A stretch of DNA of 64,000 nt from an uncultured Hormoscilla sp. (GCA_963921275.4 OZ001293.3:2400001-2464000); one strand, 5' to 3'; shown: positions 28,745-55,619, numbered from the stretch's first letter. Numbers and translations: made by a program. Notes: generated from the sequence alone by a model not told the origin.

Positions 28745-28971
28745 ACTATCCGTTTATTTTATCTGTTTCTGACCTTTTCTTGACCATACTATCCGTTGTC
28801 TGTGCTTTTGGCAAGCTGCCTAGGGCCGATGCTACCTTAGCAAACACAGATTGCCACTTAACATCTAACTTGTCCTGATGGACAGCACACGAGAGGTTAC
28901 TTCGTTCCCTAACAACATTTCGCGATACCTTTAGGTCCACACTATACCCCGGGAGCTATTTGAGTACTATA

Positions 28972-29983
28972 ACTCAAGTTGCGACCTATAAAAATTGGAT
29001 ACAAAAAGCTATGATAAAGAGAATTATTTTCAACTCTAATCCCTTAGATGTAACAGCATGAATTGACTTGGGAAACAAATTGGTGATTCGACTAAAACAG
29101 GTTTCAACTTGTTTTCTTGTTACTTTTTGTATATATTCAAAACAAGAATATTCTTTTCTTTTTGAGTTCTTTTTTCGCAAAGGTTTTAACATTATACTTG
29201 ACGACTCTTTTAGTAAATCCTCTAATTGATAATCATTATAAGCTTTATCTCCATAAACTATTGAATTTGATGGTAAGTCAAAGCCAAAAGATTGCAAAAC
29301 TTTAACATCATTATAACTACCAGGATCTAGATAAAATTCTATTGGCTTTCCATTTTTGTTTACCAACATATGAACTCTTAATCCATAAAAATAACGTTTT
29401 TTACTGGCAATATACCCTCGATATTCTTCCTTGTTATAAATTTGGCATCTATCAATCCTAATATTATCACATACTGGCACCGGGAAACTATCAAGAATAT
29501 ATTCTTGACCCGGATTGAGCTCTTTAAATGTTTGAGCTATAACTTGGAAGAAAAACATCCAAATTGGTTCCTCAATATTGTGTAATCGACGATTGAACCT
29601 ACTTTTACTTAACAGATTTTTTATATACTTGTGTTCGACCATAAATTGACAAGAGCGATCGTGGTGTCCTCCGAAAAAATATGCAGCAACTAATCCGACT
29701 GTCATCACTTCGGCATTGTTCATTTTTACTTGTGGATCTTCTTTTATATTTAACGCTTTTAGTAGCTCGTCACAAAGAACAAAAATTGTTGTAATCATAT
29801 CTTCCATCATCTACATCCCCCAGCAATTAACTATTATTTTAGTACATTATAACCTATAAACAGCCAACCCGCCGTCTAGCACAAAAAAAATATAATTTTG
29901 TATCAAAAGCTACGAAATATCCCAAATATCTGTAAAGTCTAAGTGGGTAATTCATATTTTTTTTAATAGGTCGCAACTTAGGT
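28972..29983 (-). mobile_element. IS982-family element, copy 1
   Basis: TIR ACTCAAGTTGCGACC / GGTCGCAACTTAGGT; 7-bp TSD TACTATA. Confidence 0.92.
28986..29810 (-). CDS. IS982 transposase
   Basis: LSKSRFNRR, ILDSFPVPVC, YFYGLRVH, GDKAY, RKQVETCFS. Confidence 0.92.
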   Translation of the reverse strand: MMEDMITTIFVLCDELLKALNIKEDPQVKMNNAEVMTVGLVAAYFFGGHHDRSCQFMVEHKYIKNLLSKSRFNRRLHNIEEPIWMFFFQVIAQTFKELNPGQEYILDSFPVPVCDNIRIDRCQIYNKEEYRGYIASKKRYFYGLRVHMLVNKNGKPIEFYLDPGSYNDVKVLQSFGFDLPSNSIVYGDKAYNDYQLEDLLKESSSIMLKPLRKKNSKRKEYSCFEYIQKVTRKQVETCFSRITNLFPKSIHAVTSKGLELKIILFIIAFCIQFL

Positions 29984-30444
29984 TACTATATTAGCCAGAG
30001 TCTAAAACTAATACTAGCTACCATTTCCTTTTTAGGCCAGCGCATATAGCCTTATTTCGCTGGTTCCTTATAACGAGGCTTGCACATGTTTGCCTGCTCT
30101 AACCTTGGATATCTTTCCTAGCGGCGTCACCGGCTTAGGCTGCCAGTTATCCTACATTTGAGTCCTCGCTTAGCACCACGATGATGTCGCTTCGTAGCAC
30201 CGAGGACCGGTGTCACCCCCGTACCTGGGGGGAGGGGAATTTAACCCCCATGCGGTCAGAGTTCCCGGCTAATGAAACCGGGCTAGCGTTCCGTGTTTGA
30301 CCACGTTAGGCTAGAACGAATCGCACAAACTCATTAAGGGGGCATAGCACATGATGTTTTTGTTTGCACTATCAATATTATACCACGCGCGAGAATATAT
30401 TTCCTGAAAAATATATAAATTCCTGGAAATCATACTTTAGTTAT

Positions 30445-31273
30445 CAACAGTCAAATGCTGGTAAAGCATCTCCCGTGGTTAGCACTTGTTCTATCCCTGA
30501 TATCGTAGCAAACAAGCGTTTCAACTCTAGAGGACAAGCAACGATCGCCTTCCCCCCCTTTCTTGCACTGCACTCACGTACCGGATAAACTGGATCGAGT
30601 CCCCATATCCTTGTTCCACATGTAGGAATATGGTCCCTCCTGCTAATGAAGATCCATCCCAGAGAGGTCGATCGATGGACAGGGAATTTTTCCGGGCGAA
30701 CTCACTCCATTGCCAGCGCCACTCACATTCCGCAAAGCCATTTTGCAAGTCCCCCGATAGCAATAATGCCATGCCGAGATAATAATGGGCTTCCGCGTAG
30801 TCTGGTTCTAATCGCCTGCCGGTAATGCCCGATCGCCTCTGTAATATTTCTCTGTTCCTGATAGGCACTGCCCAGGTTACAATGATCTACAGCAGAGTCC
30901 GGTTCCAGTTGATGGCCTTCCGGAAATAAGCGATCGCCTCATCTATCTTGCCCTGTTTTTCTAGGACTAGACCTATGTTATTATGTGATTTATAACTATT
31001 TTTGCCTTTTGAGGCTAGGGACTGCTCGTATAATCCGAGCGCCCGATCGTACCGGCCCCGAGCATAGGCGATATCCCCTAGTATGTGAAGCGCATCTGCA
31101 TGGTTAGGTTCCTGCCCGAGTATGTCAAAACATATCTGTTCTGCTTTCCTTACCTTTCCTGTTTGGTAATGGACAACTGCCTCATAAATTAATTGAGAAT
31201 CTCCTAATTTAGAGTTAACTTGCTTTGCTCTCCTGCCCACTTTTTGTTTTTGCCTTTTGCCGCGCTTTGCCAT
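30445..31273 (-). pseudogene. TPR-repeat / glycosyltransferase-type protein N-terminal part, fragmented
   Basis: TPRs (PNHADALHILG, HNNIGLVL), then PLWDGS...EQGYGDSIQFIRY; several frameshifts. Confidence 0.75.
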
Positions 31274-31397
31274 TTTGCCTTTCCCGTGCTTCTATGTTCT
31301 TTTATCACTCGGTTCTCATCAGCGTTCGCCTCTCTTCCTACCCCAGACTAAGATTGCTAATTGCTAATTCTTATTATCTAGCCAGCTCTAACATATC

Positions 31398-31799
31398 TTA
31401 CCAGAAACTCTGCATCTCGCCAGTCACTGGTCGCTTATCATCCCGTCCCGATTTTTCCGGCCGTGCCCCCCCCCGGGTTTTCGCCGTCCGGTGGGCACGG
31501 TAGGTGCGCAACGGCCCCGGTATCTGAGTATTTGTGACTATTGATCTTAACTGTCTCATACCACTACCAACTGTAGGATAAGCCAGATTGGTCGCAATTG
31601 TCAAGAGGCGATGTCTATCACTCAATTGAGCGATATGATTGCCTGTTTCGTAAACAGCAGCCATCGGTAAAAGAAATGATGTCTCGTCATTGAGAAGCAT
31701 TTCAAATTTATTCAATACTTCCTCTCTTGAATTATTCATATTGGGAATATTCAGGAACTCACAAAATATAGAGGTGTCAACAATTGCAACGGCTTTCAT
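31398..31799 (-). pseudogene. PIN-like protein downstream of AAA ATPase, C-terminally degenerate
   Basis: AIVDTSIFCEFL...LLPMAAVYETGNHIA, after which similarity appears lost. Confidence 0.55.
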
Positions 31800-31814
31800 C
31801 CACTAATCTCCATC

Positions 31815-33149
31815 TCAGCCACGAATACTAGCTAACCATTCCATTGCTTTTCGCTTCTTCTCTTCGCTTCCGGGATGGTATTTGACAAACCTTTCTAGCA
31901 AACCCAGTGTCATCAACTGTCCAACAGTACCTTGAGCAATCAATTCAGGGTAGTCTGGAATATCTCGTAATCGTACAAGTTGACTCGAACCATCATCGGG
32001 ACTGCGATAGCAAAAGACCATTTCTGGCACAGCCTCATCAGGTAGAGCATCAAGCAAGGCAGGATTATGGCTACTAATTAGAACTCGCAAATGACGTGTT
32101 TGTGCAATATTATAAATGCGCTTAAGTAAACCTTCTGCTCTACTGGGATGTACGCCATTATCAACTTCTTCAATGACAACAATGCTTTGTTCTGGAGCCG
32201 AAAACATGATCGCTGCAATTGACAGAACTAACAATGTCCCATCTGAGAGGGTTGTTGCATCATAGACAGCGGAGATGCCACCAAAGGTTTCAGTTAGCTG
32301 CAACATAACTTCCCCACGAGCAGTTTCAATAAAGCCGATCTCTTCAATATCTTGTTCTGGAAGACTTCTAACAAATTCTAATATCTCAGCCTTAATATCT
32401 GATTTTTGGCAGAGATTATAGAGAACACCAGAGATATTTTCTCCATGTTTTTCGAGCAACCGATCTGCTTTGTGACCATAATAGCGCATTGCATTAGGTT
32501 CGGGCTCCAGAAAAACGATGCCACTCAACCAACGAACATAATTATCGGCAATTCGAGGGATTTTTGTTCGACTCTCTTGATGTTCTGGACGGAAACGAAT
32601 CTCACTCAATAACTGTGTAAAAATTGCCATGTGGCTACTGCATGGGATTTTGGGCTTATTCCCACCACGTGCAAAATTTTTATATTCTACTAAAACATCG
32701 CTACCTGCCCCTTGAGGTTCACTGGTAATTTGGTATAGGGGAACGGTTGATATTGGGGCTATAATTTTTTCTTGAGTAACATGGCACTCTCCTTCATTGT
32801 CAAGCCCCAGTTCGATCTCGAAATGAGTCCAGTTTTCCAACTCTAAGGTTTCAACATCACAGGAAATTTGAAATAATTTTGCTCCTCCGTATCCAAGATT
32901 ATCAACTTTACCTCTAAAGGGCATTTCCCTCTGTTGATGAGTGTGGCCGAGAAGGCTTAATCTCTCGCCTTTGGCAAGTCTTGCCAGTAATCTGAGGGCT
33001 TCAATGAAATTGCTTTTACCTGATGCATTAGCTCCAATCAAAACGGTTAAAGACGCCAAGGGCAAAACTCCAGATCGATAGCTTTTAAGGTTTTTTACTT
33101 GAATCTGGGTAATCACTTTGATTGCTCCATTTTTATTGATATTACTCAA
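31815..33149 (-). CDS. AAA_21/ABC-type ATPase (AbiEii/PARIS-like architecture)
   Basis: Walker A GANASGKS, LSDGT, Walker B VIEEVDNGVHP, SSHNP. Confidence 0.85.
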   Translation of the reverse strand: MSNINKNGAIKVITQIQVKNLKSYRSGVLPLASLTVLIGANASGKSNFIEALRLLARLAKGERLSLLGHTHQQREMPFRGKVDNLGYGGAKLFQISCDVETLELENWTHFEIELGLDNEGECHVTQEKIIAPISTVPLYQITSEPQGAGSDVLVEYKNFARGGNKPKIPCSSHMAIFTQLLSEIRFRPEHQESRTKIPRIADNYVRWLSGIVFLEPEPNAMRYYGHKADRLLEKHGENISGVLYNLCQKSDIKAEILEFVRSLPEQDIEEIGFIETARGEVMLQLTETFGGISAVYDATTLSDGTLLVLSIAAIMFSAPEQSIVVIEEVDNGVHPSRAEGLLKRIYNIAQTRHLRVLISSHNPALLDALPDEAVPEMVFCYRSPDDGSSQLVRLRDIPDYPELIAQGTVGQLMTLGLLERFVKYHPGSEEKKRKAMEWLASIRG

Positions 33150-33158
33150 ATATTGAAC

Positions 33159-33202
33159 GGAAGCATCTCAATTTTTTTAAAGATAAAAATTGAGATGCTT
33201 CC
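33159..33202. terminator. Perfect 18-bp inverted repeat (terminator or operator)
   Basis: GGAAGCATCTCAATTTTT...AAAAATTGAGATGCTTCC between the tRNA 3' end and the ATPase start. Confidence 0.5.
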
Positions 33203-33359
33203 ATCTCCGTCATCTACGCCTGCCCTTTAGCAGATGCACCGGTTGGGTTAAGGGACGAAACCCAACTTACGCACTGCCCATCATGGTGGTAATAAACCGG
33301 TTTGGTTTCTTATGTTAACCGGTTAGGTTGAGGGACTTACCCAACCCAAGTATAATTAA

Positions 33360-33447
33360 CGGAGAGGGGGGGATTCGAACCCCCGATAGGGTTTTAGCCT
33401 ATAACGCATTTCGAGTGCGCCGCATTCAACCGCTCTGCCACCTCTCC
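33360..33447 (-). tRNA. tRNA-Ser(CGA)
   Basis: Reverse complement GGAGAGGTGGCAGAGCGG...CTCGAAA anticodon loop, long variable arm, GGTTCGAATCC; CCA not encoded. Confidence 0.93.
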
Positions 33448-33598
33448 AGGTATAGTTATTCTACTATTTTGCTTATTTTAACTCAAGGGACACGCTGCGC
33501 TGAAAATCTGGCTGCTTAGTACAATCTGTTACTCCACTCCTTATCCCAATATCCTATCACAGAAATATCATAGAAATATAGAATTTGAGGAATTTGTC

Positions 33599-33943
33599 AT
33601 GAAATACACATTTGACATCCTCGGCGTATCGCCAGTTTGGCATTTTTTTAATCACCAGCAAGAGAAGCAGGAACACCAACCCCGTGCTGGTGCGGAATAT
33701 GTGGGCAGCTACCATTGTACCCTGGATGCCTTTCTGGAATCGGTCGAGACAGTGCCTCGGACTCGCGGTTGGGAATTCGATCGGGTGGTGGACAGCGTCA
33801 TCGGCTATTGGATGAAAAACTCCGATAGCATCCGGCATTGGAAGCGGCGCTTGCAAGATGCTGGCGATCAGAACCTGTTAGTGGCCCGGGTAGCCGATGT
33901 TCATTCCTTGAAGACTGAGTTTGAATCTCTCTTGAATGGATGA
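33599..33943 (+). CDS. Conserved cyanobacterial hypothetical protein
   Basis: MKYTFDILGVSP...YHCTLDAF...WKRRLQDAG. Confidence 0.7.
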   Translation: MKYTFDILGVSPVWHFFNHQQEKQEHQPRAGAEYVGSYHCTLDAFLESVETVPRTRGWEFDRVVDSVIGYWMKNSDSIRHWKRRLQDAGDQNLLVARVADVHSLKTEFESLLNG

Positions 33944-34061
33944 TGGGCGATCGGGTAAAGGTATTCAATCAATTATGGGGTAGAAACCTGGTTTCTCGCC
34001 AGTAGCCCAGAAACCTGTTTTTTCCCATATACCTGGTTTCTTAATTCTTGATTGAATCGAA

Positions 34062-35333
34062 CTATACCGCAGCCGCCGACTGACTCAATGCTTCCTTCAA
34101 CAACTCAGCCTTATCCGTTTGTTCCCAAGGCAATTCCAGATCCGGGCGACCGAAGTGGCCGTAAGCAGCCAATTCCTGGTAAAAACGTCCGCCGCGTTCC
34201 CCTGGCAGGTTGCGCAAATTAAACGTCTGCATAATTCCTGCTGGGCGGAATTCAAATATCTTCTTGACCGCTTCCAACAGGCTATCTTCATCTACTTTGC
34301 CCGTACCAAAGGTCTCAATCAACATGCTCACAGGACGGGCCACCCCGATGGCATAGGACAGCTGCACCTCACATTTTTCTGCCAACCCAGCAGCCACAAT
34401 ATTCTTCGCCGCATACCGACAAGCATAAGCCGCACTGCGGTCTACCTTTGTGGGGTCTTTTCCAGAGAACGCGCCGCCACCGTGACGGGAATAGCCGCCA
34501 TAGGTATCGACAATGATTTTACGCCCCGTCAAGCCCGCATCCCCTTGGGGACCGCCAACCACAAATTTCTCCGTCGGGTTCACCAGAAATCTGGTTTGAT
34601 CGTCAGGCTTCACATCAATATCTGCGAAAGTGGGTTGCACCACAGCTGACCACAGGTCTTCTTTAATCTTTGCCTGCACGGCTGCTTCATCAGTAATGTT
34701 ACCAATGGTCGGCGCATGTTGGGTAGAAATCAGAATCGTGTCGATTCCCACAGGCCGTCCGTCTTCATAGGCCACCGTCACCTGACTTTTACCATCCGGA
34801 CGCAGGTAAGGCAATTGTCCCGTTTTACGCACCGCTGCCATGCGCCGACAAATCCCATGGGCCAAACTGATCGGTAAAGGCATCATTTCGGGAGTTTCGT
34901 TGCAGGCGAAGCCAAACATCAAACCTTGATCTCCGGCACCCACAGAGTCCAGCTTCTCTTCCGATTTTTCCGGAACGGTAGACATCTCCCGTTGTTCCTG
35001 GGCGCTGTTCACCCCTTGGGCAATATCAGGAGACTGTTCGTCTAAAGCAATCAAAACTGCACAGCTATTGGCAGAAAACCCACTATCGGCACCCAAGTAA
35101 CCAATCTCAGTTATTTTTTTCCGCGCTAGATTGATAAAGTTAATTTGAGCCTTGGAAGTAATTTCACCCGTAATCAAGACTAAACCTGTATTGACCACAA
35201 CTTCCGCGGCTACCCTACTGGTGGGGTCTTCGGTCAACAATGCATCCAGGATCGTGTCTGAGATTTGATCGCAGATTTTGTCTGGATGTCCTTCTGTAAC
35301 TGATTCGGAACTAAATAGATAACGACGTGTCAA
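34062..35333 (-). CDS. metK: S-adenosylmethionine synthetase
   Basis: [26 protein letters not shown]. Confidence 0.97.
34961..34979. repeat. 19-nt micro-repeat inside metK
   Basis: CCGATTTTTCCGGAACGGT, encodes TVPEKS on the coding strand. Confidence 0.85.
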
Positions 35334-35411
35334 GGATATCTCCTTTCTTTGCTAAATTCTATTTTCTTGCCTACCACCCCTGCCGATCTGCGATCTCGGG
35401 GCGATCCCACT

Positions 35412-36152
35412 TTACCTTATCACTTGCATTTCCTCTACGCGGGTGATCGCCACCTCTGCCTTTTCCAGCTTTACTGTACCGGTCCATCCCCAGCTGACCC
35501 CCACCACTCCTGCTGCACTGGCTGCCCGTCCCATATCAAAATCCGCCTGAGAATCTCCTACCATCAAGGTCTGCCCTGGTTCTACGCCCAACTGCCTACA
35601 GGCTTCCTGAAATAGTTTCGGGTCTGGCTTACTCAAGCCTGGAACCACTCCCATCTGTAAGCTTACGTAAGACTCCAGAGCGTATGTCTTAACAAAATCT
35701 TTAACATTTTCCGTGCGATCGGACGATACAATACCCACTTTCACCGCTGCTGTCCCAAGAGATTTCAGCAGTTTCGCCATACCCTCAAATATAGGCGTCA
35801 GGGTAGCCTTCCGCTGCATATACCTGTCTGCTTCGTCAAAGGCGGAACCGACAATTTCCAGAGATGCAATCCAATCCAGACCAGTTTCTGCTACGTAAGC
35901 AGCGGCAGCAATTTCATTTTCCCGACGGCTTCCCACCGCCATTAACCCCCCAGGGTTCAATTGATTTTCCTCCAGTCCGAACGCCATCAGTAGCGGTTCT
36001 CCCACACCCGGAATTTGGGCATCTATCAGGCGCGCGCGTTTCCGGCCCAGGTTGCGCAAAAAAGCTTCTGAATTTGCCAGGGTGCCATCCTTATCAAAAA
36101 TCACTGCCTCGATCTGAGGGAATGTTACCGCACCACATTTAATTCTTACCAA
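35412..36152 (-). CDS. HAD-family hydrolase
   Basis: IFDKDGTL, KPDP, MVGDSQAD. Confidence 0.9.
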   Translation of the reverse strand: MVRIKCGAVTFPQIEAVIFDKDGTLANSEAFLRNLGRKRARLIDAQIPGVGEPLLMAFGLEENQLNPGGLMAVGSRRENEIAAAAYVAETGLDWIASLEIVGSAFDEADRYMQRKATLTPIFEGMAKLLKSLGTAAVKVGIVSSDRTENVKDFVKTYALESYVSLQMGVVPGLSKPDPKLFQEACRQLGVEPGQTLMVGDSQADFDMGRAASAAGVVGVSWGWTGTVKLEKAEVAITRVEEMQVIR

Positions 36153-36223
36153 TTAACTTACTCCACTCAAATAGCTCAAAATGTAGGGTGGCACGCAATG
36201 GCCACCCTACTTCCAAGCTATAC

Positions 36224-37507
36224 CTACTCAGCCGAAACCAGCTCTGACTCCTTCTGCTCCGTCGCAGCGGGTAATTCTTCTGTCCCAGGGGGGATTTCAG
36301 AGGAAATCTCATCTGATGTCTCATCTGATGTCTCATCTGATGTTTCAGCTGCCATCTCATCTGATATCTCTGCTAGCGTTGCCGCTGCCATCTCATCTGA
36401 TGTCCCTGCTGGCGTTGCCGCTGCCGTCTCATCTGATGTCTCTGCTGGCGTTGCCGCTGCCATCTCATCTGATGTCTCTGCTGGCGTTGCCGCTGGCGTT
36501 TCCGCTGCTGTCTCATCTAACGTCTCTGCTGGCGTTGCCGCTGGCGTTTCCGCTGCTGTCTCATCTAATGTCTCTGCTGCTGTCTCATCTGCTGGTTGTT
36601 CCCCTTCCTGTTGAGAGCGCAGTTTTTGGCGATACTTTTCTGCCATTTCTTCGGCCTTGTCGTAAACCAGCTGAGGATTTTTCACCATATCCCCCGGTTC
36701 TGGCTCCAACTGTTTGGTGGAAAGTGATATCCTGCCCCGTTCCGCATCCAAGTCAATGATCATCACTTTGATTTCATCATTAACATTGAACACGCTGTGA
36801 GGGGTATCGATGTGGTCGTGGGAAATTTCCGAGATGTGCAGTAGGCCGCTGACACCGCCAATATCGATAAATGCACCATAAGGTTTGAGTCCCCGCACCG
36901 TACCGATGACCACTTCGGTGACTTCCAAGCGGTTCATCTTCCGTTCCACTAGCGCTCGTCTGTGACTCAGGACTAGCCGGTTCCTTTCTTCATCTACCTC
37001 CAAAAACTTCAGAGGTAGCTCTTCTCCCATCAGATCGTCTTTATTTTTGCGGGTACTGATGTGAGAACCTGGAATAAAGCCCCGCAACCCTTCTATTCTG
37101 ACTAAGGCTCCGCCCCGGTTGGTCGCAAATACTTGCGCTCGCACCGTTGCATCTTCGGTCTGCAACTGTCGCACCCGTTCCCAAGCCCGCATATACTCTA
37201 TCCGGCGAATGGAAAGGGTCAGTTGTCCATCTTCATTCTCATCTGTCAGGATAAAAAACTCTCGTGTCTCATTTGACTGCAACACTTCCTCGGCGGCTTC
37301 TATCCTGTTGATTGACATTTCCTGAATTGGTATGTATGCAGCTGTTTTAGCACCGATGTCAATCAGAGCGCCCCTCGGCTCCAGATTAAATACCGTTCCC
37401 GCGACTATGTCGCCGGGACTAAAGTGATAGTCGTACTTGTCGAGTAGGGCTGCGAAATCTGCATGAGTGAAGCCTATGTCTGTAGCCGTTATTTGCTGAT
37501 TGACCAT
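36224..37507 (-). CDS. rpsA: 30S ribosomal protein S1 with long repetitive acidic tail
   Basis: Three S1 domains (GALIDIGAK, GFIPGSHIS, SGLLHISEIS) then about 125 aa of A/E/T/D repeats. Confidence 0.93.
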   Translation of the reverse strand: MVNQQITATDIGFTHADFAALLDKYDYHFSPGDIVAGTVFNLEPRGALIDIGAKTAAYIPIQEMSINRIEAAEEVLQSNETREFFILTDENEDGQLTLSIRRIEYMRAWERVRQLQTEDATVRAQVFATNRGGALVRIEGLRGFIPGSHISTRKNKDDLMGEELPLKFLEVDEERNRLVLSHRRALVERKMNRLEVTEVVIGTVRGLKPYGAFIDIGGVSGLLHISEISHDHIDTPHSVFNVNDEIKVMIIDLDAERGRISLSTKQLEPEPGDMVKNPQLVYDKAEEMAEKYRQKLRSQQEGEQPADETAAETLDETAAETPAATPAETLDETAAETPAATPAETSDEMAAATPAETSDETAAATPAGTSDEMAAATLAEISDEMAAETSDETSDETSDEISSEIPPGTEELPAATEQKESELVSAE

Positions 37508-37684
37508 GCTTATTGTTTCCTGGATGATTCTACTCCTTATTTTTTTGGTGTCTTTTACTTTCTGGACGCTTCTCCGTGGGAGCCGCCCCAGCCATTAGTC
37601 CAGACATATTATCATACCGTAATTTACCCGCTGAGTGCAAGCTTTATAACTCAGCGGGTAGAATTTTTGCCAAATAATCCTGTC

Positions 37685-38284
37685 CTAGGTCGGTTTTTCC
37701 TTGTCAACCGCTACCTCAGTTAACGATCCTGGTGATGAGGCTGGCAGAGTTCCAGTTGTGACATTGCCATGATAGATGTGAGCATCTGCCGATTTTTCCG
37801 GAACGGTATCTTTGAGCAGGCGCATCAAACTTGCCATTTCCAGAGCACTCATGGCATAGTCCCAGCCGAGATTGCTTTTAATGCCCGCCCGTTCCAAGGC
37901 TTGCTGCATGGTATCCGTGGTCAACACGCCAAATATCACTGGCACTCCCGTCTGTAAGGCCGTGGCCGCAATCCCCTTGGATACCTCAGCTGCGACATAG
38001 TCAAAATGGGGAGTTTGACCCCGGATCACGGCACCCAAGCAAATTACGGCATCATAGCGATCGCTCAGCACCAGTTGACGGGCCACGATGGGGATTTCCC
38101 AACTGCCAGGCACCCAAGCATAATCTACTTGAGTGCCATTAGGATTGATATCGACCCCGTGGCGTTTCAAGCAATCTTGACATCCAGCTAACAGCTTGCT
38201 TGTGACCAGGTCGTTGAAGCGACCGATCACAATGGCAAACCGTAATGATGAAGTCCGTGAGAAGGTTCCCTCGAAAACTGTCAT
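37685..38284 (-). CDS. ribH: 6,7-dimethyl-8-ribityllumazine synthase
   Basis: [27 protein letters not shown]. Confidence 0.95.
37789..37807. repeat. 19-nt micro-repeat inside ribH
   Basis: CCGATTTTTCCGGAACGGT (TVPEKS). Confidence 0.85.
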
Positions 38285-38398
38285 TTTATTTGTTAGTGGT
38301 CAGTTGTCCGTTGCGTAGTCCGGGCCGATCGATCGCCTGTCCCTGATGGGTCACTGGTCACTGGTCACCGCTGGTCACTGTGTACCGGTCACCACTGA

Positions 38399-38417
38399 CC
38401 GATTTTTCCGGAACGGT
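38399..38417. repeat. 19-nt micro-repeat, intergenic psbZ-ribH
   Basis: CCGATTTTTCCGGAACGGT. Confidence 0.85.
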
Positions 38418-42250: not shown

Positions 42251-42428
42251 CTATCAGAGGTTCTGCTACCATCCATTATTCCTCAAATTCAAGTCATAAC
42301 CATTTTACCAGCCTGTCGTGTCTGGGTGCATCCCGTTTTTGTAATATAGCCCGCCCTTCGGCTAACGCAGCGCGGGCTATATTACATGCATCATCGATGC
42401 ACCCGGCTATCAACGAGCGCACCCAATC

Positions 42429-42622
42429 TAACCGGTGCCCCACTGTTGGGGTTTAAAACCTCTCGGTTGAGGTTTTAAACCTCTCGGTTGGGGTTTAAAA
42501 CCTCTCCGCTGGGGTTTAAAACCTCTCCGCTGGGGTTTAAAACCTCTCGGTTGAGGTTTAAAACCTCTCGGTTGGGGTTTAAAACCTCTCGGTTGGGGTT
42601 TTAGTGGTCTTGCACCCGTTGG
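42429..42622 (-). repeat. 21-bp tandem array x~8, same family as 21144-21375
   Basis: Unit GGTTTTAAACCCCAACCGAGA with the same flanks CCAACGGG..CAAGACC and CAGTGGGGCACCGGTTA. Confidence 0.88.
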
Positions 42623-43223
42623 CAACCGTTCACCGTTTCCTGTAAAGAGTTCCCCACTAATACAACTACTTTTGACCACACCCCTCCCTTCTCCCTTCTC
42701 CCTAACCGAGAAGTATTGGCCCCACCCTCGTTCCCACGGCTCAGGGGTTTGTTGCAGTTGGGTAACTGAGTTTTGAAGAAGCCAGTCGTCATAGTCATGT
42801 GATTGACAAAAGATCTTGGATTGCCAGATCTTTATAAAATATAGTGATCCTAAATCATTTGTGTAAACATTCTGCCAGAGCAGCGCCCAAACCATTGGGG
42901 GGTAAGGATTTCAGCCCCGTGTCCCTCGGTAGTGCAAGTAGCGCCCTGCATCTCCTCTTTTGTGCGATTAGCGCTTCGGTGGAGACGCCGCACCAGGAGA
43001 CGCCGCACCAGGAGATGCCGCACCGGGGAACACAGCCCGAACCAGATCTTGAGACTCTTCACCCCGTCCCCTTGGCTTAAGTACCATTGCCCCTAAATAC
43101 CTTTTTTCCGTGAGCCAAGTAACTATAGAGTTGTTTATCCCGTCTTCCTCTCCCCAGAAACTAATCGATTGGGTAACCAAGTTATAATAACTTTTGTTAA
43201 GATACCCAACCCCCAAACTGTTG

Positions 43224-46603: not shown

Positions 46604-46674
46604 CTCCGAGATAGAGATTAGGGTGATAATGTAGGAGAGTCCGAAATTTACCAAACCCTAAAATTGTAGCTCCT

Positions 46675-47580
46675 ATGTTTAAGCGTGCTTTAATCTCTAC
46701 GGATTTATCGGACGGTTTGCATCGGCTAGTAGATTTTGTGCCAGCTCTGGCTGCCAGTGGTTTGCAGCAGATTGTTTTCCTGCATACTGTGCCCCTGTGG
46801 CAGGAGGGGAGAATCCCCAGGGAAGACACGGAAAAAATACAGAGTGCCAAATCGCGCCTATCAATGGCACAAGTTCCTTCCGGAGTTGATGTTAAAGTTG
46901 AGGTCTTCACCTCTAATAAACCCCATGAGGCGATTTTGCAGACCGCCGAAACCTACCAGTCAGATATCATTATCTTGGGTGCTTCTACCCAGAATCTGCT
47001 TAACGAAAAGCTGTTTGGTTCTACCAGTGTGACTGTATCTCAGCAAACGGAAACGCCGTTGATGGTGCTGCGCCCCCGGCTGGTCTCTATCTACACCACC
47101 GAGGAGCTTTCCCTGCGCTGTCAGCATCTGTTCCGCTATTTGATGATTCCTTACGATGGCAGCGACTCAGCTGATTATTTGGTCCAACAGATTAAGCAAT
47201 ACGCCCAAGACCGCCCGTCGGGACTCTCCCATTGTCTGCTTATCTGGGTAGTTGAGGAGGGAGGGATCAGGGAACTGCGCAAGCATGAAGAATTGCAACT
47301 TGCCCACGAAACCCTCGCATCAGTTAAAGCCGATTTGTCACAACTAGACTTGGAGGTAATTGTGGAGGTGCGGCAAGGAGATCCCCTGCCGGAGATTTTT
47401 AATGCGGTTCTCGAACATGATATCGCGGCGATCGCCATCACCTCTTTACGGCACAACAAGTTACTGGACTGGTCAGTTCCCAGCTTTAGTAACCAGCTGC
47501 TGCGTCGCAGTTGGTATCCGATCGTCTTTTTCCCGCCCCCACGCTGCGCGAAAAATCGCGAGGGTCATCATCGTGGTTAG
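46675..47580 (+). CDS. Universal stress protein (tandem USP domains)
   Basis: ALISTDLS, FGSTS, PYDGS. Confidence 0.85.
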   Translation: MFKRALISTDLSDGLHRLVDFVPALAASGLQQIVFLHTVPLWQEGRIPREDTEKIQSAKSRLSMAQVPSGVDVKVEVFTSNKPHEAILQTAETYQSDIIILGASTQNLLNEKLFGSTSVTVSQQTETPLMVLRPRLVSIYTTEELSLRCQHLFRYLMIPYDGSDSADYLVQQIKQYAQDRPSGLSHCLLIWVVEEGGIRELRKHEELQLAHETLASVKADLSQLDLEVIVEVRQGDPLPEIFNAVLEHDIAAIAITSLRHNKLLDWSVPSFSNQLLRRSWYPIVFFPPPRCAKNREGHHRG

Positions 47581-47810
47581 GAATTGCCGCTATCGGAATC
47601 GGAGGAGGAAAAAGAAACTGAATCATCCGATTCCAGTTTAAGTATAATTTGCGGTTGCAGCTTGTCAAGCTCTTGCTTGAGCAGTTCTTTACTCAGGCTA
47701 GGTTGGCTCTCTGGCAACAGCTGCCCATCATCCGACGTCTTCCGCGTGCTCTTGTCCTGAAGGACTCGGCACACTCCAGACACCGCCCCGTGATTGTGCA
47801 ACGCCGAAAT

Positions 47811-47832
47811 TTTTATAGGTCGCAACTTGAGT
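47811..47832. mobile_element. Solo IS982 terminal repeat
   Basis: TTTTATAGGTCGCAACTTGAGT followed by TATCCTA. Confidence 0.65.
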
Positions 47833-47842
47833 TATCCTATAA

Positions 47843-49024
47843 TTATCTGCTTCCACAGCATCCACCTATATGGATTTCCCCCAGCAGCATCTCCCGCATC
47901 GCACCTGTCACCCTGGGAACGTTACCTGCTATACCATTATAGCGCCAGTAGGCCAAGACTGCAAAGGCGATCGCTTCTTTATATTCGGCATTCAAACCTG
48001 CTTCATCTGTTGTTAACACCGGTACTGTCCCCAACTGTTTTTGCAAACGCTGTCGCAGGTAGAGATTGCGGCTACCTCCTCCACACAACAGCACTTCCTC
48101 TGGCATTTGCGGTAAATATTCCCGGTAACTCTGGACTATTGATGCTGCTGTCAGTTCTGTCAGAGTTGCTAGTATATCCTCCTGTTTGACTAGATCATTC
48201 TTTTTCACATCTGTCAAACATTTCTCTAAGAATTGAGCGCCAAATTCCTCCCTGCCAGTTGATTTTGGGGGTGCTTGTTGAAAAAAGCTGTGTCTTAGCC
48301 ACTGGTTTACTAGGGGAGTACAGGGTACGCCCCGTGCTGCCCACGCACCATCAGGATCGTATGTTAGGGCGCCACCTGTGAACTGCTGCACTGCTAGGTC
48401 TATTAGCATATTACCCGGACCTGTATCCCACCCCCAAACTTTTTCCAACTGCGCCACTGGCCCGGCTGGCAAATAGGTGAGGTTGCCAATGCCACCTATA
48501 TTTTGGATACAGCGACTAACTGTGGGATTTCCCAATAAATAGGCATCTACTCGCGGTACTAGTGGGGCTCCCTGTCCGCCTGCGGCCAGGTCGGCCTTTC
48601 GGAAGTTACTCACTGTCGTTATCCCTGTCTGATGGGCGATCGCCTCTCCTCTCCCTAATTGGATACTATAACCCAATTGGCTGCTTGTGCCGGACTGGCG
48701 AGCCGCTGTTTTTCTGGGAGGGCGATGATATATTGTTTGACCGTGGGAACCGAGCAATTCCGCTTTCCCATTCCCTGCTTCCAGGGTTAGGGCTGCGTTC
48801 CCGAATGCTTCTGCGATCGAGTCGTCGAGCGCTGCTAATTCTAGCATAGTCATGGCTGCTCCGCCACCTACTGCCAAAATTTTTGCTTTCAAACCTGCTG
48901 CATATAGATATGTTTGAGCTGCTATCAGTTCAACTCGTATATTTTCTTCCTGACCTGCAATTTCTACCATTGCGGCATCTATTCCATCCACTGACGTGCC
49001 ACTTATCAGTCCTATTACTCGCAT
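47843..49024 (-). CDS. anmK: Anhydro-N-acetylmuramic acid kinase
   Basis: [43 protein letters not shown]. Confidence 0.95.
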
Positions 49025-49060
49025 TATTCCCCAACTCTCAGCTTCCGTTCCTTAGAAAAT

Positions 49061-49771
49061 TCAATAATAACTCGATCCACTTGGCAATCTCTTAATGTCC
49101 TTATTGGCCCCTATTAACACCATTTTAGCACCTTTTCGGAGTTTTGTATTTCCCGTGGTATTTATTTCTAATTTTTGGTTTTCACTTAAGGCAATCAAAT
49201 TGAGACCATAACTGCTTTTCAGTTCTATTTCTGCTAGGGTCTTACCCTCAAATTATGCTGGCACCAATACTTCCACTATGCTATAATCTGTATCTAGTTC
49301 CAAACCTTCTAAAATATTTGGTTGCGTGAGGGATCTGGCTATTTCGCAACCCATTTCATGTTCCGGGAAAAATACCAAATTAGCTCCTACTTTTTTGAGC
49401 AGTTTTTCATGAATCTTTGAAGATGCTTTTGCTATCACGTAATTCACTCCTTTTTCCTTCAAATTCAACACCGTGATGACACTTTCTTCAAGATAATTGC
49501 CTATTGCTACGATCGCGGTATCAAATTCAAAAATTACTGCCTGCTTCAGGGCCAAAGGATCGGTTGAGTCTAATTCTAGCACGTGAGTCGCGATCTCGTC
49601 GTTTGCTGCTTTATCCACGCACTTATCATTCGAGTCAACCCCCATTACCTCATATCCCATGCCATACAATGTAGCACAGACTGCTCGACCAAACCTGCCC
49701 AAACCAATGACTGCAAACTGCATACTTTCTCGGCGCCGACTGCGGAATAAACTCATAGATGATAAATCCAC
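49061..49771 (-). pseudogene. ktrA: TrkA/KtrA K+ uptake NAD-binding subunit with internal stop at 49253
   Basis: IGLGRFG; the TrkA-C frame continues past the stop (FEGKTLAEIELKSSYGLNLIAL). Confidence 0.8.
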
Positions 49772-49798
49772 TGTCTCACCCCTTTTCTATCTTCATAC

Positions 49799-51147
49799 TT
49801 AACCGATTAATAAATTTTCCTCTGGGTACCGGACGATCTGAGGTTTTGTGTTTCCCCGAAATACCGCCATCAGCAGCAACACCCCTACTCTCCCCACATA
49901 CATTGTTCCGATCAATACCAGTTTAGCACCGAGGGGCGCACTTGCTGTAATCCCTGTAGATAGGCCCGTAGTCTCAAAGGCGGACACTACTTCAAAAAAG
50001 CTATCTATGAAATTGAAGCCTTGCTCTATTGCTGTTAGGGTAAATAAAGTGGTGGCCAAAATTACCACTAACATAGATCCTACCACGACGCCAACGGCTT
50101 TCAGAATTAATGTCGTGGGAATCTGTCGTTTATAGCATATCACTTCTTCCTCTCCTTTGAGTGCTGCTCTGGTACAACTGACCAATATTCTGGATGTGGT
50201 GGTTTTAATCCCCCCACCAGTGCTGCCCGGACTCGCCCCGATCGACATCAGGGCTATGGTAATAAATAACGACGTGATCGTCATCTTGCCCATGTCGATC
50301 GTGTTGAACCCTGCAGTCCGACTGGTGACCGATTGAAACCACGCTGCCATGAGTTTTTCTCCTAAGTTTAGCTCGCCTAGGGTTTCGGGATTGTTAAATT
50401 CTGTTTGGAAAAATGCGATCGCCCCCAATACCAATAGAAATATCGTGGTACTGGTGACCATTTTGAAATGCAAGGAAAAACAACTGCTTCTACGGCGACT
50501 GCGGTCTTGACACCATTGATATAGTTCCATTATCGCTTGATATCCCAAACCGCCAAAGATAATTAATAAAGTTATTACCAGGTTCAAAATTGGCGCACTC
50601 ACATATCCGACCAGACTATCGCTAAATAGACTAAAACCCGCATTATTGAAGGCACTTATGCTATGAAATATTGATAGCCACAGTCCCGGTATAAATCCAT
50701 AATCTGGTACGAATACTAGCAGCAAACCAAATACTCCAGTCAGCTCAAAAATTAACGTAACGGCAATAATAGATTTGACTAGCTGGCCGACTCCCGCTAT
50801 TCCTTCTACATCCAGGGATTGTTGTAGGGCTACCTTATCTCGCAAGCCTAATTTTCGCCCTAGCAGCAGCAAGAGAAATGTGTTCGCAGTCATGTACCCC
50901 AAGCCGCCAAATTGAAACAGGATGCAAATAAACAGTTGCCCCAAAAAAAGTAATATTGGCTGACATCCACTATGGATAAGCCGGTGACGCATACAGATGA
51001 TGTAGCGGTAAATAATGCTTTAATTAGGTAATCTAAGGGGCCCGCGATCGCCGCATCCGGATTAATAACAAATGGCATCATTAACAGACCGGTACTTAAG
51101 GCGATCGCCCCCAGTAAACTTAAGCAAATAGTTCTCGAAACCGTCAT
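49799..51147 (-). pseudogene. ktrB: TrkH/KtrB K+ uptake membrane subunit, frameshift near 50945
   Basis: FTATSSVCVTGL in one frame; SAFNNAGF, SRTAGF, GSTGGGIK in another. Confidence 0.8.
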
Positions 51148-51314
51148 TTTTTAGTTGCTAATTGCTATTTTTTAGTTGTTATTTTTTAATTGTAGGTTGA
51201 CTGCTGACAATCTCTGACTTCTGAAAGGGCTAAAGCCCAACAACGAACAACTACTCACTACCCACCGCTGACACGATCGCATTTTATTAAATCATAAACT
51301 ATTGACAAAGAACC

Positions 51315-51462
51315 ATGAATCAGACAAGTTCTGAAGAAATTAAGGAATTTTACGATGCTTCCTCTGGTCTGTAAGAGCGGGTTTGGGGAGAACCTATGCA
51401 CCACGGCTACTATAGCGAAAGCGGTCGGGAAAGAAAGGACCGGCGTCAGGCCCAAATCGAGA
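51315..51462 (+). pseudogene. N-terminal relic of a gamma-tocopherol methyltransferase-like gene
   Basis: Manual translation IKEFYDASSGL*ERVWGEPMHHGYY...KDRRQAQIE. Confidence 0.65.
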
Positions 51463-51516
51463 GCCCCATTCTGCCCGGCATTCCTGGACTGAGCAGAGGT
51501 CTCCGCTATGGAGATA

Positions 51517-52131
51517 TCAAGCAACGATCGCCACCGTGTTACTGGGAATGGCCATTCCTGCTTGGTTGAAGGCAATGACACGATACTTTAAGGTTTTCTC
51601 CTGCTCTTGCCGGAGTAATATAATCGAGGTCGAGGTCGATGTGGCCACCGTATTCCAAATGTCGAATTCCGGATCTAACTTCTCTACCTGATAACCTGCC
51701 ACTTTTCCGCCATCGGACCGGGATGACCGCTGCCATCTTAACTCGATCGTACCAGGATATAGGCGCACGGCTTGTAATGAACGCGCTGCCCCGGGAATTT
51801 ATAGGGGAGTTGGGGCGGAACGTCCAGCCCAACCCAGCAGCTTCAGCTTCTCAGAGGATAATTGTGTAACAGCCTCGGCATAACGCAGGTTCTGCTTCAT
51901 GATCGCAACCAACTTTTTCAGCATATCCTCTTTTTTTTTAAGCGCCTCCTCTACTACGCTCCTGGCAGTAGATAACTCTTGCTGGCTGTTCTTAAATTCC
52001 CCCAGGATAGTTTCCATCTCGTTGGGGGGGACTATCGGTGTTGGATAGATCTCGCTGTGGGCGGTGAACCCTCGAATCATGCTTTCTGCTAAAGCTGTGA
52101 TATTTGCCTCTGAAACGGGAAATCTTGCCAT
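51517..52131 (-). pseudogene. Fibronectin type III domain protein, frameshifted near 51800
   Basis: MARFP...YAE, then ELRW..DGGKVAGYQV..YRVIAFNQAG..PSNTV. Confidence 0.7.
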
Positions 52132-52289
52132 TTTGGCCTCCTGTTTTCTTTATCTCTAGTCTTGTAGAATACACAAAAAATGAAAAATCTGCTCTGCCGA
52201 CAGGATCTGATCGTGATTTCAGAAGCCATTGACAGCCAGCTTCTAACCATGCTAGTCGATCCACGGACCACAAAGGGAGCAGGGAGAGG

Positions 52290-52532
52290 TTGGTGCTTAT
52301 TGGTTGAGTGGTTATCCGCCTTAGCGATAACCGGTCTAGGCTACCAGTCATGGCGCCTTTCCTACCCGCTTCACGTATTGATGCCATCGCTACCATGGGG
52401 TAGGTGCTGTCACGAGAGCAGAGTCGGGGTGGAATTTCACCACCATCATCTAAAAGTTATCAGGGCTAATAGTACCCTGCTAGCGGTCCCCCGCCGACTT
52501 ATCACCGGTGGTTTACACTAAACTCATCGCAC
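52290..52532 (-). mobile_element. 5' fragment of a group II intron related to the outer intron at 6679
   Basis: Reverse complement starts GTGCGATGAGTTTAGTGTAAAC and shares GGTAGCGATGGCATCAAT..GTGAAGCGGG.AGGAAAGGCGC; no domain V. Confidence 0.75.
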
Positions 52533-52758
52533 ACCCACATAGTATATCATAACTCTGGCCAAGGCAGGTTAAGAGTTGGGGGTGAAGACCTAGAATAAAT
52601 CCATTCCGAGGAGGGTAGTTCAGGCCACAAGAGGTTAGAAATATTGAGTAATCTTGCTCAAATATGTGAAATTGACTTATTCTTGGCAAAAGTAAGCTTA
52701 ATATGAGAGGGAATTGACCTATTCGCGCCAATAATCTGCTAATTTTTGGCTATAATAG

Positions 52759-53795
52759 CTATAATAATAGGTCAGAATAGCGCTCTTATAGGTCACAATG
52801 AGCTATAATAGGTCAGAATAGATATATTCTCGGTCAGAATATACTTATTTCGGTCGGAATAGCGCTATAATAGGTCGGAATGGATGGGGTCGAGCCGGGA
52901 ATCGCTTCCCGACCCTCCCTTGAGGAACCGGACTTGCGATTTTCACCGCATCCGGCTACTGGGTACTAGGCCCTTTTCATAGGTAGACTTAATAGGAATT
53001 ACTTCCGTTAGCCCTTGCCGCCTGTCTTTTCTTCCCTTTCCTGGTTTAGCGAGTGGTTGTTCTGATAACCGTTAGTATCACCATTTTCAAGTCAGTTTTA
53101 CCAGTTATCCATACCTTATCCTCCACTTGCGTTTCGGATTAGTTCCGTGGCTTTTTAGGATTACTCATTCCAGCAGCTTCCTAGTATCACCGACCCACGT
53201 CAGCGCTGGCTACCCAGCATCATCTACATTACTGTAGATGTTATCCCAGGAATTACCCCGGGCATTCGCTTCTTGGGCCATCCCTCCCCCCGTGGCTTGC
53301 GCTTAACATCTAACTTGTCCTGATGGACAGCACACGAGAGGTTACTTCGTTCCCTAACAACATTTCGCGATACCTTTAGGTCCACACTATACCCCGGGAG
53401 CTATTTGAGTACTATATTAGCCAGAGTCTAAAACTAATACTAGCTACCATTTCCTTTTTAGGCCAGCGCATATAGCCTTATTTCGCTGGTTCCTTATAAC
53501 GAGGCTTGCACATGTTTGCCTGCTCTAACCTTGGATATCTTTTTTAGCGGCGTCACCGGCTTAGGCTGCCAGTTATCCTACATTTGAGTCCTCGCTTAGC
53601 ACCACGATAATGTCGCTTCGTAGCACCGAGGACCGGTGTCACCCCCGTATTTGGGGGGAGGGGAATTTAACCCCCATGCGGTCAGAGTTCCCGGCTAATG
53701 AAACCGGGCTAGCGTTCCGTGTTTGACCACGTTAGGCTAGAACGAATCGCACAGACTTATTATAGGTCAGAATAGCGCTCTTCTGGATCAGAATC
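52759..53795. repeat. Degenerate 20-21-bp tandem array (GGTCAGAATAGCGCTATAATA-like) split by intron copy A
   Basis: Units at 52780-52881 and 53753-53795. Confidence 0.7.
52882..53752 (-). ncRNA. ORF-less group II intron (copy A)
   Basis: GTGCG 5' end at 53752; domain V AGCCGGATGCGGTGAAAATCGCAAGTCCGGTT; ends ...GACCCCAT(CC). Confidence 0.9.
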
Positions 53796-53900
53796 GATTT
53801 ATTCAAAGTCTTCACCCCCAACCCCTAACTTTCCACCAAGCCGTGTATCCTAGGTAAAGAAGACCAACCCCTAAAAAATCTATCCCTTACAGAAGATATT

Positions 53901-54290
53901 ATGGCTACATTTAACGTAGATACACCAGCAGAACTATCCGATGCCATTACCAATTCCGCGAATAACGGTCAGGCAGATACCATTAACATCACGGGAGATA
54001 TTACCCTGACCGGGTTGCTACCCCTTATTGAAGAAGACGTCCAACTCACGATAAATGGGAACGACAACACCATTGATGGCAACGACCAATACCGGCTGTT
54101 TTTTGTCAGAAGCGGTACAGTCAATTTCAATGACCTGACCAATTTGGAGTCTCTCCGGCTGGACGGCAACCAACTGACTGGCAGCATCCCGACGGAGTTA
54201 GGGAACACCCTCATTGGTGGCTCGAGAAAGGATCACCTCTATGGTGCCCTGTTTGTCTTTAACGGGACCGTCAGAATGACAAACTCTCAG
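53901..54290 (+). pseudogene. Mosaic surface-protein remnant including one orphan LRR unit
   Basis: MATFNV...IDGNDQYRLFFVRSG, then NLESLRLDGNQLTGSIPTELGN, then a GGSRKD RTX-like piece. Confidence 0.6.
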
Positions 54291-54291
54291 T

Positions 54292-54404
54292 ATAGCATAA
54301 AAAATAATTTTATGTATCAGAGACGAAAAAAACCTAAATATCCGTAAAGTCTAAGTAGGTAATCCATATTTGTTAAGATTTTTTAAATAGGTCGCAACTT
54401 GAGT
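54292..54404. mobile_element. Divergent IS982 end remnant
   Basis: Similar to 59360-59462; ends GGTCGCAACTTGAGT + TATGATA. Confidence 0.65.
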
Positions 54405-54748
54405 TATGATAGACCTAGGTGCGACTCGTTCCGGCGTAAGTCAGAAATATGACGATAGTCGGGCTAGTATTACACCAGCACCTCTACAGAAAAATACAAG
54501 AGAAACCAAAAAATGAAGCATAATACCAATGCCAACACCATGGTAGTAGTGGATGCCTCCCTAGAAAACTACCAGCAGCTTATAGACGGCATCCGGCCTG
54601 GGGCCAAATCTTTCCTCTTAGACCTTCGGTCCGATGGCATCAAACAGATCGGCGAACTTCTCCGACAGCATCAAGAAACAGAGGTTCTGCACCTACTTTC
54701 CCACGGCAGCCCTGGCTGTCTGTATCTGGAAAACTCCCAACTGAGTTT

Positions 54749-55619
54749 GGATGGGGTCGAGCCGGGAATCGCTTCCCGACCCTCCCTTGAGGAACCGGAC
54801 TTGCGATTTTCACCGCATCCGGCTACTGGGTACTAGGCCCTTTTCATAGGTAGACTTAATAGGAATTACTTCCGTTAGCCCTTGCCGCCTGTCTTTTCTT
54901 CCCTTTCCTGGTTTAGCGAGTGGTTGTTCTGATAACCGTTAGTATCACCATTTTCAAGTCAGTTTTACCAGTTATCCATACCTTATCCTCCACTTGCGTT
55001 TCGGATTAGTTCCGTGGCTTTTTAGGATTACTCATTCCAGCAGCTTCCTAGTATCACCGACCCACGTCAGCGCTGGCTACCCAGCATCATCTACATTACT
55101 GTAGATGTTATCCCAGGAATTACCCCGGGCATTCGCTTCTTGGGCCATCCCTCCCCCCGTGGCTTGCGCTTAACATCTAACTTGTCCTGATGGACAGCAC
55201 ACGAGAGGTTACTTCGTTCCCTAACAACATTTCGCGATACCTTTAGGTCCACACTATACCCCGGGAGCTATTTGAGTACTATATTAGCCAGAGTCTAAAA
55301 CTAATACTAGCTACCATTTCCTTTTTAGGCCAGCGCATATAGCCTTATTTCGCTGGTTCCTTATAACGAGGCTTGCACATGTTTGCCTGCTCTAACCTTG
55401 GATATCTTTCCTAGCGGCGTCACCGGCTTAGGCTGCCAGTTATCCTACATTTGAGTCCTCGCTTAGCACCACGATGATGTCGCTTCGTAGCACCGAGGAC
55501 CGGTGTCACCCCCGTACCTGGGGGGAGGGGAATTTAACCCCCATGCGGTCAGAGTTCCCGGCTAATGAAACCGGGCTAGCGTTCCGTGTTTGACCACGTT
55601 AGGCTAGAACGAATCGCAC
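54749..55619 (-). ncRNA. ORF-less group II intron (copy B)
   Basis: Near identical to 52882-53752; 871 nt including the terminal CC. Confidence 0.9.

Follow-up and report, generated by a model that had tools for sequence, protein, structure and literature searches.

The proliferation of group II introns to high copy number is central to the hypothesis that these elements seeded spliceosomal introns and retrotransposons. To our knowledge, Thermosynechococcus elongatus, with its 28 copies, is the only well-studied bacterial case of such proliferation. Seventeen of the 28 introns are reported to lack an open reading frame (ORF) and to form four families, and ORF-less IIB1 introns that had diverged in their exon-binding sites (EBS) were mobilised experimentally in trans, TeI3 families F3-F6 being mobilised by TeI4 reverse transcriptases (RTs) with selection for A at position -15 (Mohr, Ghanem and Lambowitz 2010, PMC2882425). 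For other IIB introns, an additional pair between EBS2a and the intron-binding site (IBS) IBS2a has been described (Monachello et al. 2021, PMC8643678), and tandem integration of EcKTE56.groEL was explained by an EBS3(U)-G wobble (Mob DNA 2025, PMC12584367). Here we describe an ORF-less group II intron of 871 nt found in a stretch of 64,000 nucleotides (hereafter the window; C1:2400001-2464000) of the 7.03-Mb assembly of an uncultured Hormoscilla sp. The intron is very probably a non-autonomous retroelement that spreads by RNA-guided reverse splicing and is copied by the RT of another intron. This kind of element is already known; noteworthy are the scale of its spread, the many retargeted lineages, and the antisense insertions in RT genes.

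Group II introns are recognised by a 5' GUGYG, a domain 5 with the catalytic AGC, a bulged A in domain 6 and a 3' AY. Two full-length copies of the intron lie on the minus strand of the window, at 52882-53752 and 54749-55619, and according to a repeat finder and alignment both are exactly 871 nt long, start with GTGCG and end with GACCCCATCC. The copy at 54749-55619 equals the family consensus, and the other has five differences from it. The Rfam model RF00029 (domains 5 and 6) scored above its gathering score of 40 at four places of the window: at 52884-52960 and 54751-54827 on the minus strand, with 44.4 bits each, and at 7673-7750 and 9840-9916 on the plus strand. In the two minus-strand matches, which belong to the copies described above, the Rfam alignment contains the catalytic AGC and the bulged A. 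The intron is of the IIB1 or chloroplast-like (CL) type, more precisely of the Thermosynechococcus type; it shares with TeI3 of T. elongatus a cyanobacterial-type IIB1/CL ribozyme without an ORF and families that differ mainly in EBS1 and EBS2 (PMC2882425).

The original prediction, made from the window alone, listed three near-identical copies without an RT at unrelated loci. The absence of an RT was borne out, as no stop-to-stop frame of the 871-nt consensus, whichever the strand, is longer than 58 amino acids. Two of the three copies are the full-length ones above, whereas the third (28857-30326, minus strand) is truncated as well as split by an insertion sequence (IS), and is not one contiguous fragment. 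Its 5' piece, intron nt 1-343, lies at 29984-30326; the IS-like insertion of about 1.0 kb, with approximate boundaries 28972-29983, carries a DDE_Tnp_1 transposase ORF at 28986-29810 (Pfam), and the second piece, intron nt 337-451, is found at 28857-28971, with nothing of the intron beyond. The 7 nt repeated on either side of the insertion look like its target duplication. As to the loci, both full copies in the window belong to one cluster of a multicopy gene family, but most copies in the genome do have unrelated flanks.

A blastn search of the genome with the intron gave 674 high-scoring segment pairs, 164 of them with at least 95% identity. Full-length copies (nt 1-871) account for 138 of these, each with at least 98% identity and all on the chromosome; the other 26 come from truncated, interrupted or nested copies. 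At the 5' end, 137 full copies have GTGCG and the remaining one has GTGTG. Exactly 871 nt were found in 122 copies, of which 61 are equal to the consensus, and two of the 122 differ on average by 1.94 nt (pi 0.0022). A search of 40 other genomes from this order, four congeners included, returned nothing near-identical, the nearest match being a relative with 91% identity in one of the congeners. From this near-identity of the copies and the lack of a near-identical one in the genomes searched, it follows that the burst is recent and lineage-specific, in line with the predicted recent proliferation. Variants of the intron have spread too: a 2-nt variant is present in 20 copies, and the five changes of the 52882 copy (nt 102, 103, 144, 209 and 210; all G>A or C>T, two of them amounting to GG>AA) recur together at an unrelated site, C1:894011, therefore this variant itself has moved. 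Of the full copies, 64 are on the plus and 74 on the minus strand; in a comparison aimed at replication-strand bias, orientation per 0.5-Mb bin had no clear relation to the weak cumulative GC skew (range about 10,000 over 6.9 Mb).

Five copies are nested within other copies of the same intron, between nt 768 and 769, where the host reads ...AAGTCT/ACCTATG..., the slash marking the point of insertion. Because of these self-nested copies, the ends of the element, GTGCG...GACCCCATCC, are unambiguous and the target is seen not to be duplicated; the boundary is also set by the empty sites described below.

Grouped by their flanks, the 138 copies occupy 106 distinct site clusters, and a logo was made from one site per cluster. 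Information was found only at positions -15 to -9, -6 to -1 and +1, and none beyond -16 or +2. In the proximal part, the sites (counts out of 106) have G at -6 (92), A or G at -5 (64 and 35), G at -4 (78), T at -3 (83), C or T at -2 (78 and 23) and T at -1 (91), followed by A or G at +1 (81 and 13). In the distal part, they have A at -15 (76) and -14 (48), C at -13 (72), C or T at -12 (61 and 33), T at -11 (70) and -10 (64), and A at -9 (66). The proximal motif, G-R-G-U-Y-U followed by A, is complementary to EBS1, AGACUC (intron nt 324-329; 53424-53429, minus strand, in the 52882 copy), which occupies the terminal loop of a hairpin and pairs with -1 to -6. Positions -13 to -9 are complementary to EBS2, UAAGG (nt 257-261), which together with EBS2a, a U at nt 255 two bases upstream, lies at 53492-53498 (minus strand) of the same copy. 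A nearby conserved loop was also considered as EBS2 and dropped in favour of the segment GUUAU-AAGG-AACC once the sister family had been compared. The positions with two letters in the logo are those that face a G or U of EBS1 or EBS2, where a G·U wobble is possible.

The pairings of AGACUC with the three 5' exon ends in the window, GAGUUU (6/6, one GU), AAGUCU (5/6) and GGAUCU (5/6), had been computed correctly in the original prediction, and over the 106 sites such pairing goes far beyond chance; the genome-wide copy count and insertion-site logo, which had been proposed as a check, thus gave 138 full copies and a logo that complements both EBS1 and EBS2. In the window, the 5' exon targets are at 53753-53767 (minus strand, IBS2 to IBS1, ending in AAGUCU) for the 52882 copy and at 55620-55634 (minus strand, ending in GGAUCU) for the 54749 copy, the latter site being empty in at least 10 paralogs. 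EBS3, which in IIB introns pairs with +1 in place of the delta-delta' contact of IIA introns, is probably a U that pairs with A, sometimes G: the base counts at +1 are as expected for EBS3 = U. The preference at -15 resembles that of T. elongatus: in both systems, protein appears to recognise little of the target other than A at this position (PMC2882425).

Pairing and target also change together between lineages. The EBS region forms 55 sequence clusters in the genome; the helices that flank EBS1 and EBS2 are kept across these clusters, while the loops and the EBS segments vary. One comparison is provided by an ORF-less sister family of 835 nt, about 78% identical to the 871-nt intron over nt 1-500, with 72 full copies in 54 site clusters and one representative in the window (6917-7751, plus strand), which sits in the sense direction inside domain 1 of an RT-encoding intron. 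In this family the loop UGCACU replaces AGACUC and UCUAG replaces UAAGG, and its logo reads R-G-U-G-Y-A at -6 to -1 and Y-U-A-G-A at -13 to -9. The covariation test was extended to 27 further EBS combinations with 44 sites, taken from matches with a defined 5' end. IBS1 paired at 6/6 positions in 27 sites, 5/6 in 16 and 4/6 in one; mean IBS1 pairs were 5.59 for cognate versus 4.15 for non-cognate combinations, and mean IBS2 pairs, of 5, were 4.16 versus 2.85. The base two upstream of EBS2 covaries with -14 (A-T 12/14, C-G 3/3, G-C 3/3, T-A 107/200). The layout is like that of EcI5 and Th.e.I3, with U-U-A between helix and EBS2, EBS2a in the centre and an A 3' of it; -14 covaries across lineages here, yet it is A in only 48 of the 106 sites of the 871-nt family (PMC8643678). 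Most differences between the 871-nt intron and the 91% relative in the congener fall in EBS1 and EBS2, and the EBS sequences of the relative pair with the 5' exon next to it. In comparison with T. elongatus, the scale is larger, 138 and 72 full copies of two ORF-less families coexisting with 55 EBS-region clusters (PMC2882425).

The state of the target before insertion was seen at several sites. The 54749 copy splits, in antisense orientation, a gene at 54513-58540 (plus strand) that encodes a protein with DUF4347 at its N-terminus and LRR, Ig-like and cadherin repeats after it (Pfam). The intron occupies this position in six LRR paralogs, whereas at least 10 others are uninterrupted, with an ORF that continues through the site on the strand opposite to that of the intron. 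The empty sites read GAG(T/G)ATCT followed directly by AAACTCAG, without duplication. Position -5 is G in all six occupied sites (5/6 EBS1 pairs) and T in eight of the 10 empty ones (4/6 pairs), a difference that fits pairing-dependent homing. The empty site of the nested 835-nt copy is exact as well: sister RT introns without it read GAGCGTA followed by AAGCGAAGG. Finally, a contig of a related organism (one public run, flanks about 97% identical) bridges the locus L011 (C1:3287262-3291132) by joining positions 1500 and 2373 through a single different letter where 872 positions, the intron and the next base, are skipped. At this locus a sense copy interrupts a gene of a pPIWI-RE island, a defence-like module, with a pPIWI_RE_Z domain in the 5' part of the gene.

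The logo, the covariation of the sister lineages and the exact, duplication-free empty sites therefore support RNA-guided retrohoming of a non-autonomous intron as the way of spread, as had been predicted, and the signs that would speak for another mode were not seen: there are no target-site duplications, sites are complementary to the EBS, and most flanks are unrelated. From these results, the following mechanism may be proposed. The excised intron RNA would recognise its DNA site through EBS1 with -6 to -1 and EBS2 with -13 to -9, with further contacts of EBS2a (U) with -14, loosely, and probably of EBS3 (U) with +1; it would then reverse-splice between -1 and +1, and the inserted intron RNA would be copied to DNA by an RT made by another intron in the same cell.

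Head-to-tail arrays may be a by-product of the same process. Two copies are found at C1:824934/825805 (C1:824934-826675) and three at C1:5447656/5448527/5449397 (C1:5447656-5450267); in the tandem junctions CATCC is joined directly to GTGCG of the next copy, and the upstream junction keeps the original 5' exon, with G of the next copy at +1. Such junctions fit those expected if a second copy re-homes at an occupied 5' junction via an EBS3(U)-G wobble, with unequal recombination as an alternative for the arrays. The pattern is like that of the IIB1 intron EcKTE56.groEL, and 13 of the 106 sites here have G at +1; the arrays of EcKTE56.groEL come from a plasmid assay, whereas those described here are natural and chromosomal (PMC12584367).

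Intact RT genes of the same class are present in the genome. Of 54 RT-like ORFs of at least 350 amino acids, 20 are near full length; taken together with the lack of an ORF in the 871-nt intron, they suggest that an RT is supplied in trans. Such a trans-acting RT is a well-founded assumption given the experimental precedent in T. elongatus, where trans-mobilisation was demonstrated in the laboratory (PMC2882425). One candidate helper is in the window itself: an RT-encoding intron at 6679-9916 (plus strand, end approximate, GTGCG at 6679), which is the outer intron of a twintron and whose 598-aa protein (8114-9910, plus strand) has RVT_N, RVT_1, GIIM and HNH domains (Pfam). Among solved structures, this protein is nearest to 6ME0, the intron RT of T. 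elongatus (E 1.7e-114). The reading frame runs through domain 5 into domain 6 of its own intron (9840-9916), therefore its last ~24 codons overlap catalytic RNA. Twintrons, insertions into other mobile elements and RTs with an endonuclease (En) domain are features shared with T. elongatus (PMC2882425).

Near-identical sister genes of this RT are broken by the 871-nt intron. Codons 1-471 of the window RT are matched by eight other copies at 99.6-99.8% amino acid identity, and codons 468-598 by nine loci at 97.7%; at the break, codon 471, the sister genes carry the intron in antisense orientation, and these insertions form a flank cluster of 10 sites (C1:1058395-1061059 and about eight similar loci). 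The equivalent position of the window, 9526, is free of the insertion, and within its near-identical subfamily (at least 99.5% amino acid identity) the window RT alone is uninterrupted. Four more distant relatives (82.8-84.3% amino acid identity) align over all 598 codons without the insertion. Here, then, an ORF-less intron lies antisense in RT genes and breaks them, whereas the insertions described in T. elongatus are in sense orientation between two start codons (PMC2882425).

The original prediction named the RT at 8114-9910 as a possible helper. Its intact ORF with all domains and its being the sole uninterrupted copy of its near-identical subfamily are in favour of this, but in blastn its own ribozyme resembles the 871-nt intron over the first bases only, ribozymes nearer to that intron (75-80% over domains 1-3) belong to RT-bearing introns at C1:6624120, C1:1145540 and C1:1140778, no shared domain 4 motif was found, and 19 other near-full-length RTs are equally possible. 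It is thus unlikely that this particular RT is the one used.

Several observations weigh against the proposed retrohoming of a non-autonomous intron. With regard to the ribozyme, the 3' terminus, ...CCCCAUCC, has CC instead of the usual AY, in which the intron also differs from those of T. elongatus; the 835-nt family ends in ...GACU and the 91% relative of the congener in ...AGCC. The model RF01999 (D1D4-2) gave 21.4 bits (E 0.064), below its gathering score of 36. A single-sequence fold shows the hairpin that presents EBS1, but its energies are no better than those of shuffled sequences (z -0.2 and +1.0). The EBS2a pair with -14 was seen in only 45% of the sites of the 871-nt family, therefore it is often not formed. 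With regard to the helper, no RT-bearing intron closer than about 80% to the 871-nt ribozyme was found in the genome, those of the 20 near-full-length RTs included, and an ORF-bearing master copy was looked for and likewise rejected, none exceeding this identity. When intron nt 500-790, the domain 4 region, were compared by blastn-short with the sequence on either side of the 20 intact RT ORFs (400 nt on the 5' side, and the 3' flank), the only matches were adjacent copies of the 871-nt intron itself, and no domain 4 similarity was seen. An RT N-terminus follows 16 of 353 domain-1 segments within 1.5 kb, most of these being nested 835-nt copies or neighbouring introns. With regard to the sites, clusters of 10 (one RT gene site), six (LRR paralogs) and five (other intron copies) may be passengers of repeats, and the occupied LRR paralogs have 5' flanks with 98-99.7% identity, therefore co-duplication, gene conversion or shared ancestry is possible there.

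The missing similarity of domain 4 and the roughly 80% limit of the closest RT-bearing ribozyme, together with about nine RT genes of one subfamily broken by the 871-nt intron itself, would suit a recently extinct family, i.e. one that spread by retrohoming and then lost the RT that recognised it, the copies now being immobile and perhaps unspliced. We regard this as improbable. Half of the 871-nt copies are still identical to the consensus, with very low diversity, and the five-change and 2-nt variants, the former at two unrelated sites and the latter in 20 copies, moved as sublineages of their own. Self-nesting and tandem arrays exist, one site is empty in a relative with about 97% identical flanks, 20 near-full-length RT ORFs remain, and T. 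elongatus RTs are reported to cross-mobilise related ORF-less families (PMC2882425). These features suggest that the family may be active today.

That the copies arose chiefly as DNA, through segmental duplication, gene conversion among paralogs or hitch-hiking in other mobile elements, is hardly credible: although 32 of the 138 copies are not alone in their site cluster (among them the 10 at one RT gene site, whose carriers are about 99.7% identical, the six in LRR paralogs with their similar 5' flanks, and the five nested ones), the 106 clusters have unrelated flanks with only a short EBS1/EBS2-complementary motif in common, the ends are exact to the base without duplication, the occupied LRR paralogs agree at 90-98% in their 3' flanks as against 99.5-100% in the introns themselves, and the sister lineages have matching sites of their own.

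Insertion of the 871-nt intron has had consequences for the genes of the host. To describe the gene context, each copy was removed in silico and frames of at least 150 amino acids were recorded, with 1000 random positions as a control. Of the 138 copies, 33 are sense to such a frame, 42 antisense and 63 in none; per site cluster, the figures are 32, 25 and 49 of 106, and for the random positions 324, 305 and 371. There is thus no sense-strand preference relative to genes when compared with random positions, and a mild excess outside long ORFs. Because 42 of the 138 copies are antisense in long ORFs and cannot be removed at the RNA level, the burst disrupts genes, some of which encode possible helpers: the antisense copies include the 54749 copy of the window and about 10 within intron RT genes. 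The original prediction described its copy B as antisense within a gene and disrupting it. If the 52882 copy is meant, this does not hold, as no frame longer than 54 amino acids spans its site once it is removed in silico (39 and 54 amino acids); this copy sits in short repeats upstream of the DUF4347/LRR gene. The statement does apply to the copy at 54749-55619.

The intron load of the chromosome is unusually high, with at least 308 domain-5 motifs. A strict domain-5 pattern matched 308 sites on the chromosome and none in the reversed sequence or on the six small contigs; 146 of the sites have sequence of the 871-nt family and 88 the domain 5 of the 835-nt copy of the window. Sequence similar to the three introns of the window amounts to 469,142 bases, or 6.8% of the chromosome. 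In an Rfam search of the genome, in which 150 of 867 first-look candidates were scored, 151 matches were obtained. The highest number of group II introns reported among 1,790 representative bacterial genomes is 101, in Arthrospira platensis (Miura et al. 2022, PMC8919778). Both are genomes of the filamentous-cyanobacterium type that are rich in CL-type and ORF-less introns, and the 308 domain-5 motifs stand against those 101 introns, although the methods differ and the counts are not strictly comparable (PMC8919778). A full-text literature search, incomplete in coverage, turned up no prokaryote with more than 101 group II introns.

Taken together, these observations could be read more broadly, and we put this forward only tentatively, as doubtful in its entirety: the chromosome would carry the largest prokaryotic group II intron load yet seen, combined with a hyperparasitism like that of SINEs on LINEs (short and long interspersed nuclear elements). 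A lineage that was ORF-less before the congeners diverged would retarget itself by swaps of EBS1 and EBS2, would outnumber the RT-encoding introns by about 10:1, and would insert antisense in the RT genes of its possible helpers, so that one RT subfamily is left with just one uninterrupted gene, that of the window. If true, this would make the chromosome a natural and ongoing model of non-autonomous introns overrunning a genome. The hundreds of natural insertions of related ORF-less lineages are in any case a dataset for the rules of EBS1, EBS2, EBS2a, EBS3 and tandem re-homing, and also for the costs, namely antisense gene disruption and the destruction of RT genes. A ribozyme with so many natural EBS variants could inform the design of gene targeting, and the organism, if culturable, could serve as an experimental system for ongoing intron invasion.

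Several other features were recorded. The DUF4347-LRR-Ig-cadherin family, to which 55811-58540 of the window belongs, has about 20 or more paralogs with 72-nt LRR and 300/585-nt cadherin repeats, and it is a recurrent intron target. The IS-like element of about 1.0 kb that splits the truncated intron copy recurs at 58439-59464 and, inverted, at 61230-62259, both times among the cadherin repeats that lie downstream of the LRR gene. The 31.4-kb contig C3 has 17.6% G+C compared with 47.4% for the chromosome and may be foreign or a contaminant. Elsewhere in the window, a tRNA with a long variable arm lies at 33360-33447 on the minus strand (Rfam RF00005, 58.8 bits), a 12-nt periodic repeat with 17 overlapping copies of a 108-nt register at 36277-36612, and tandem arrays of a 21-nt unit (GTTTTCAACCCCAACCGAGAG) at 21140-21399 and 42417-42643, in inverted orientation and about 21 kb apart.

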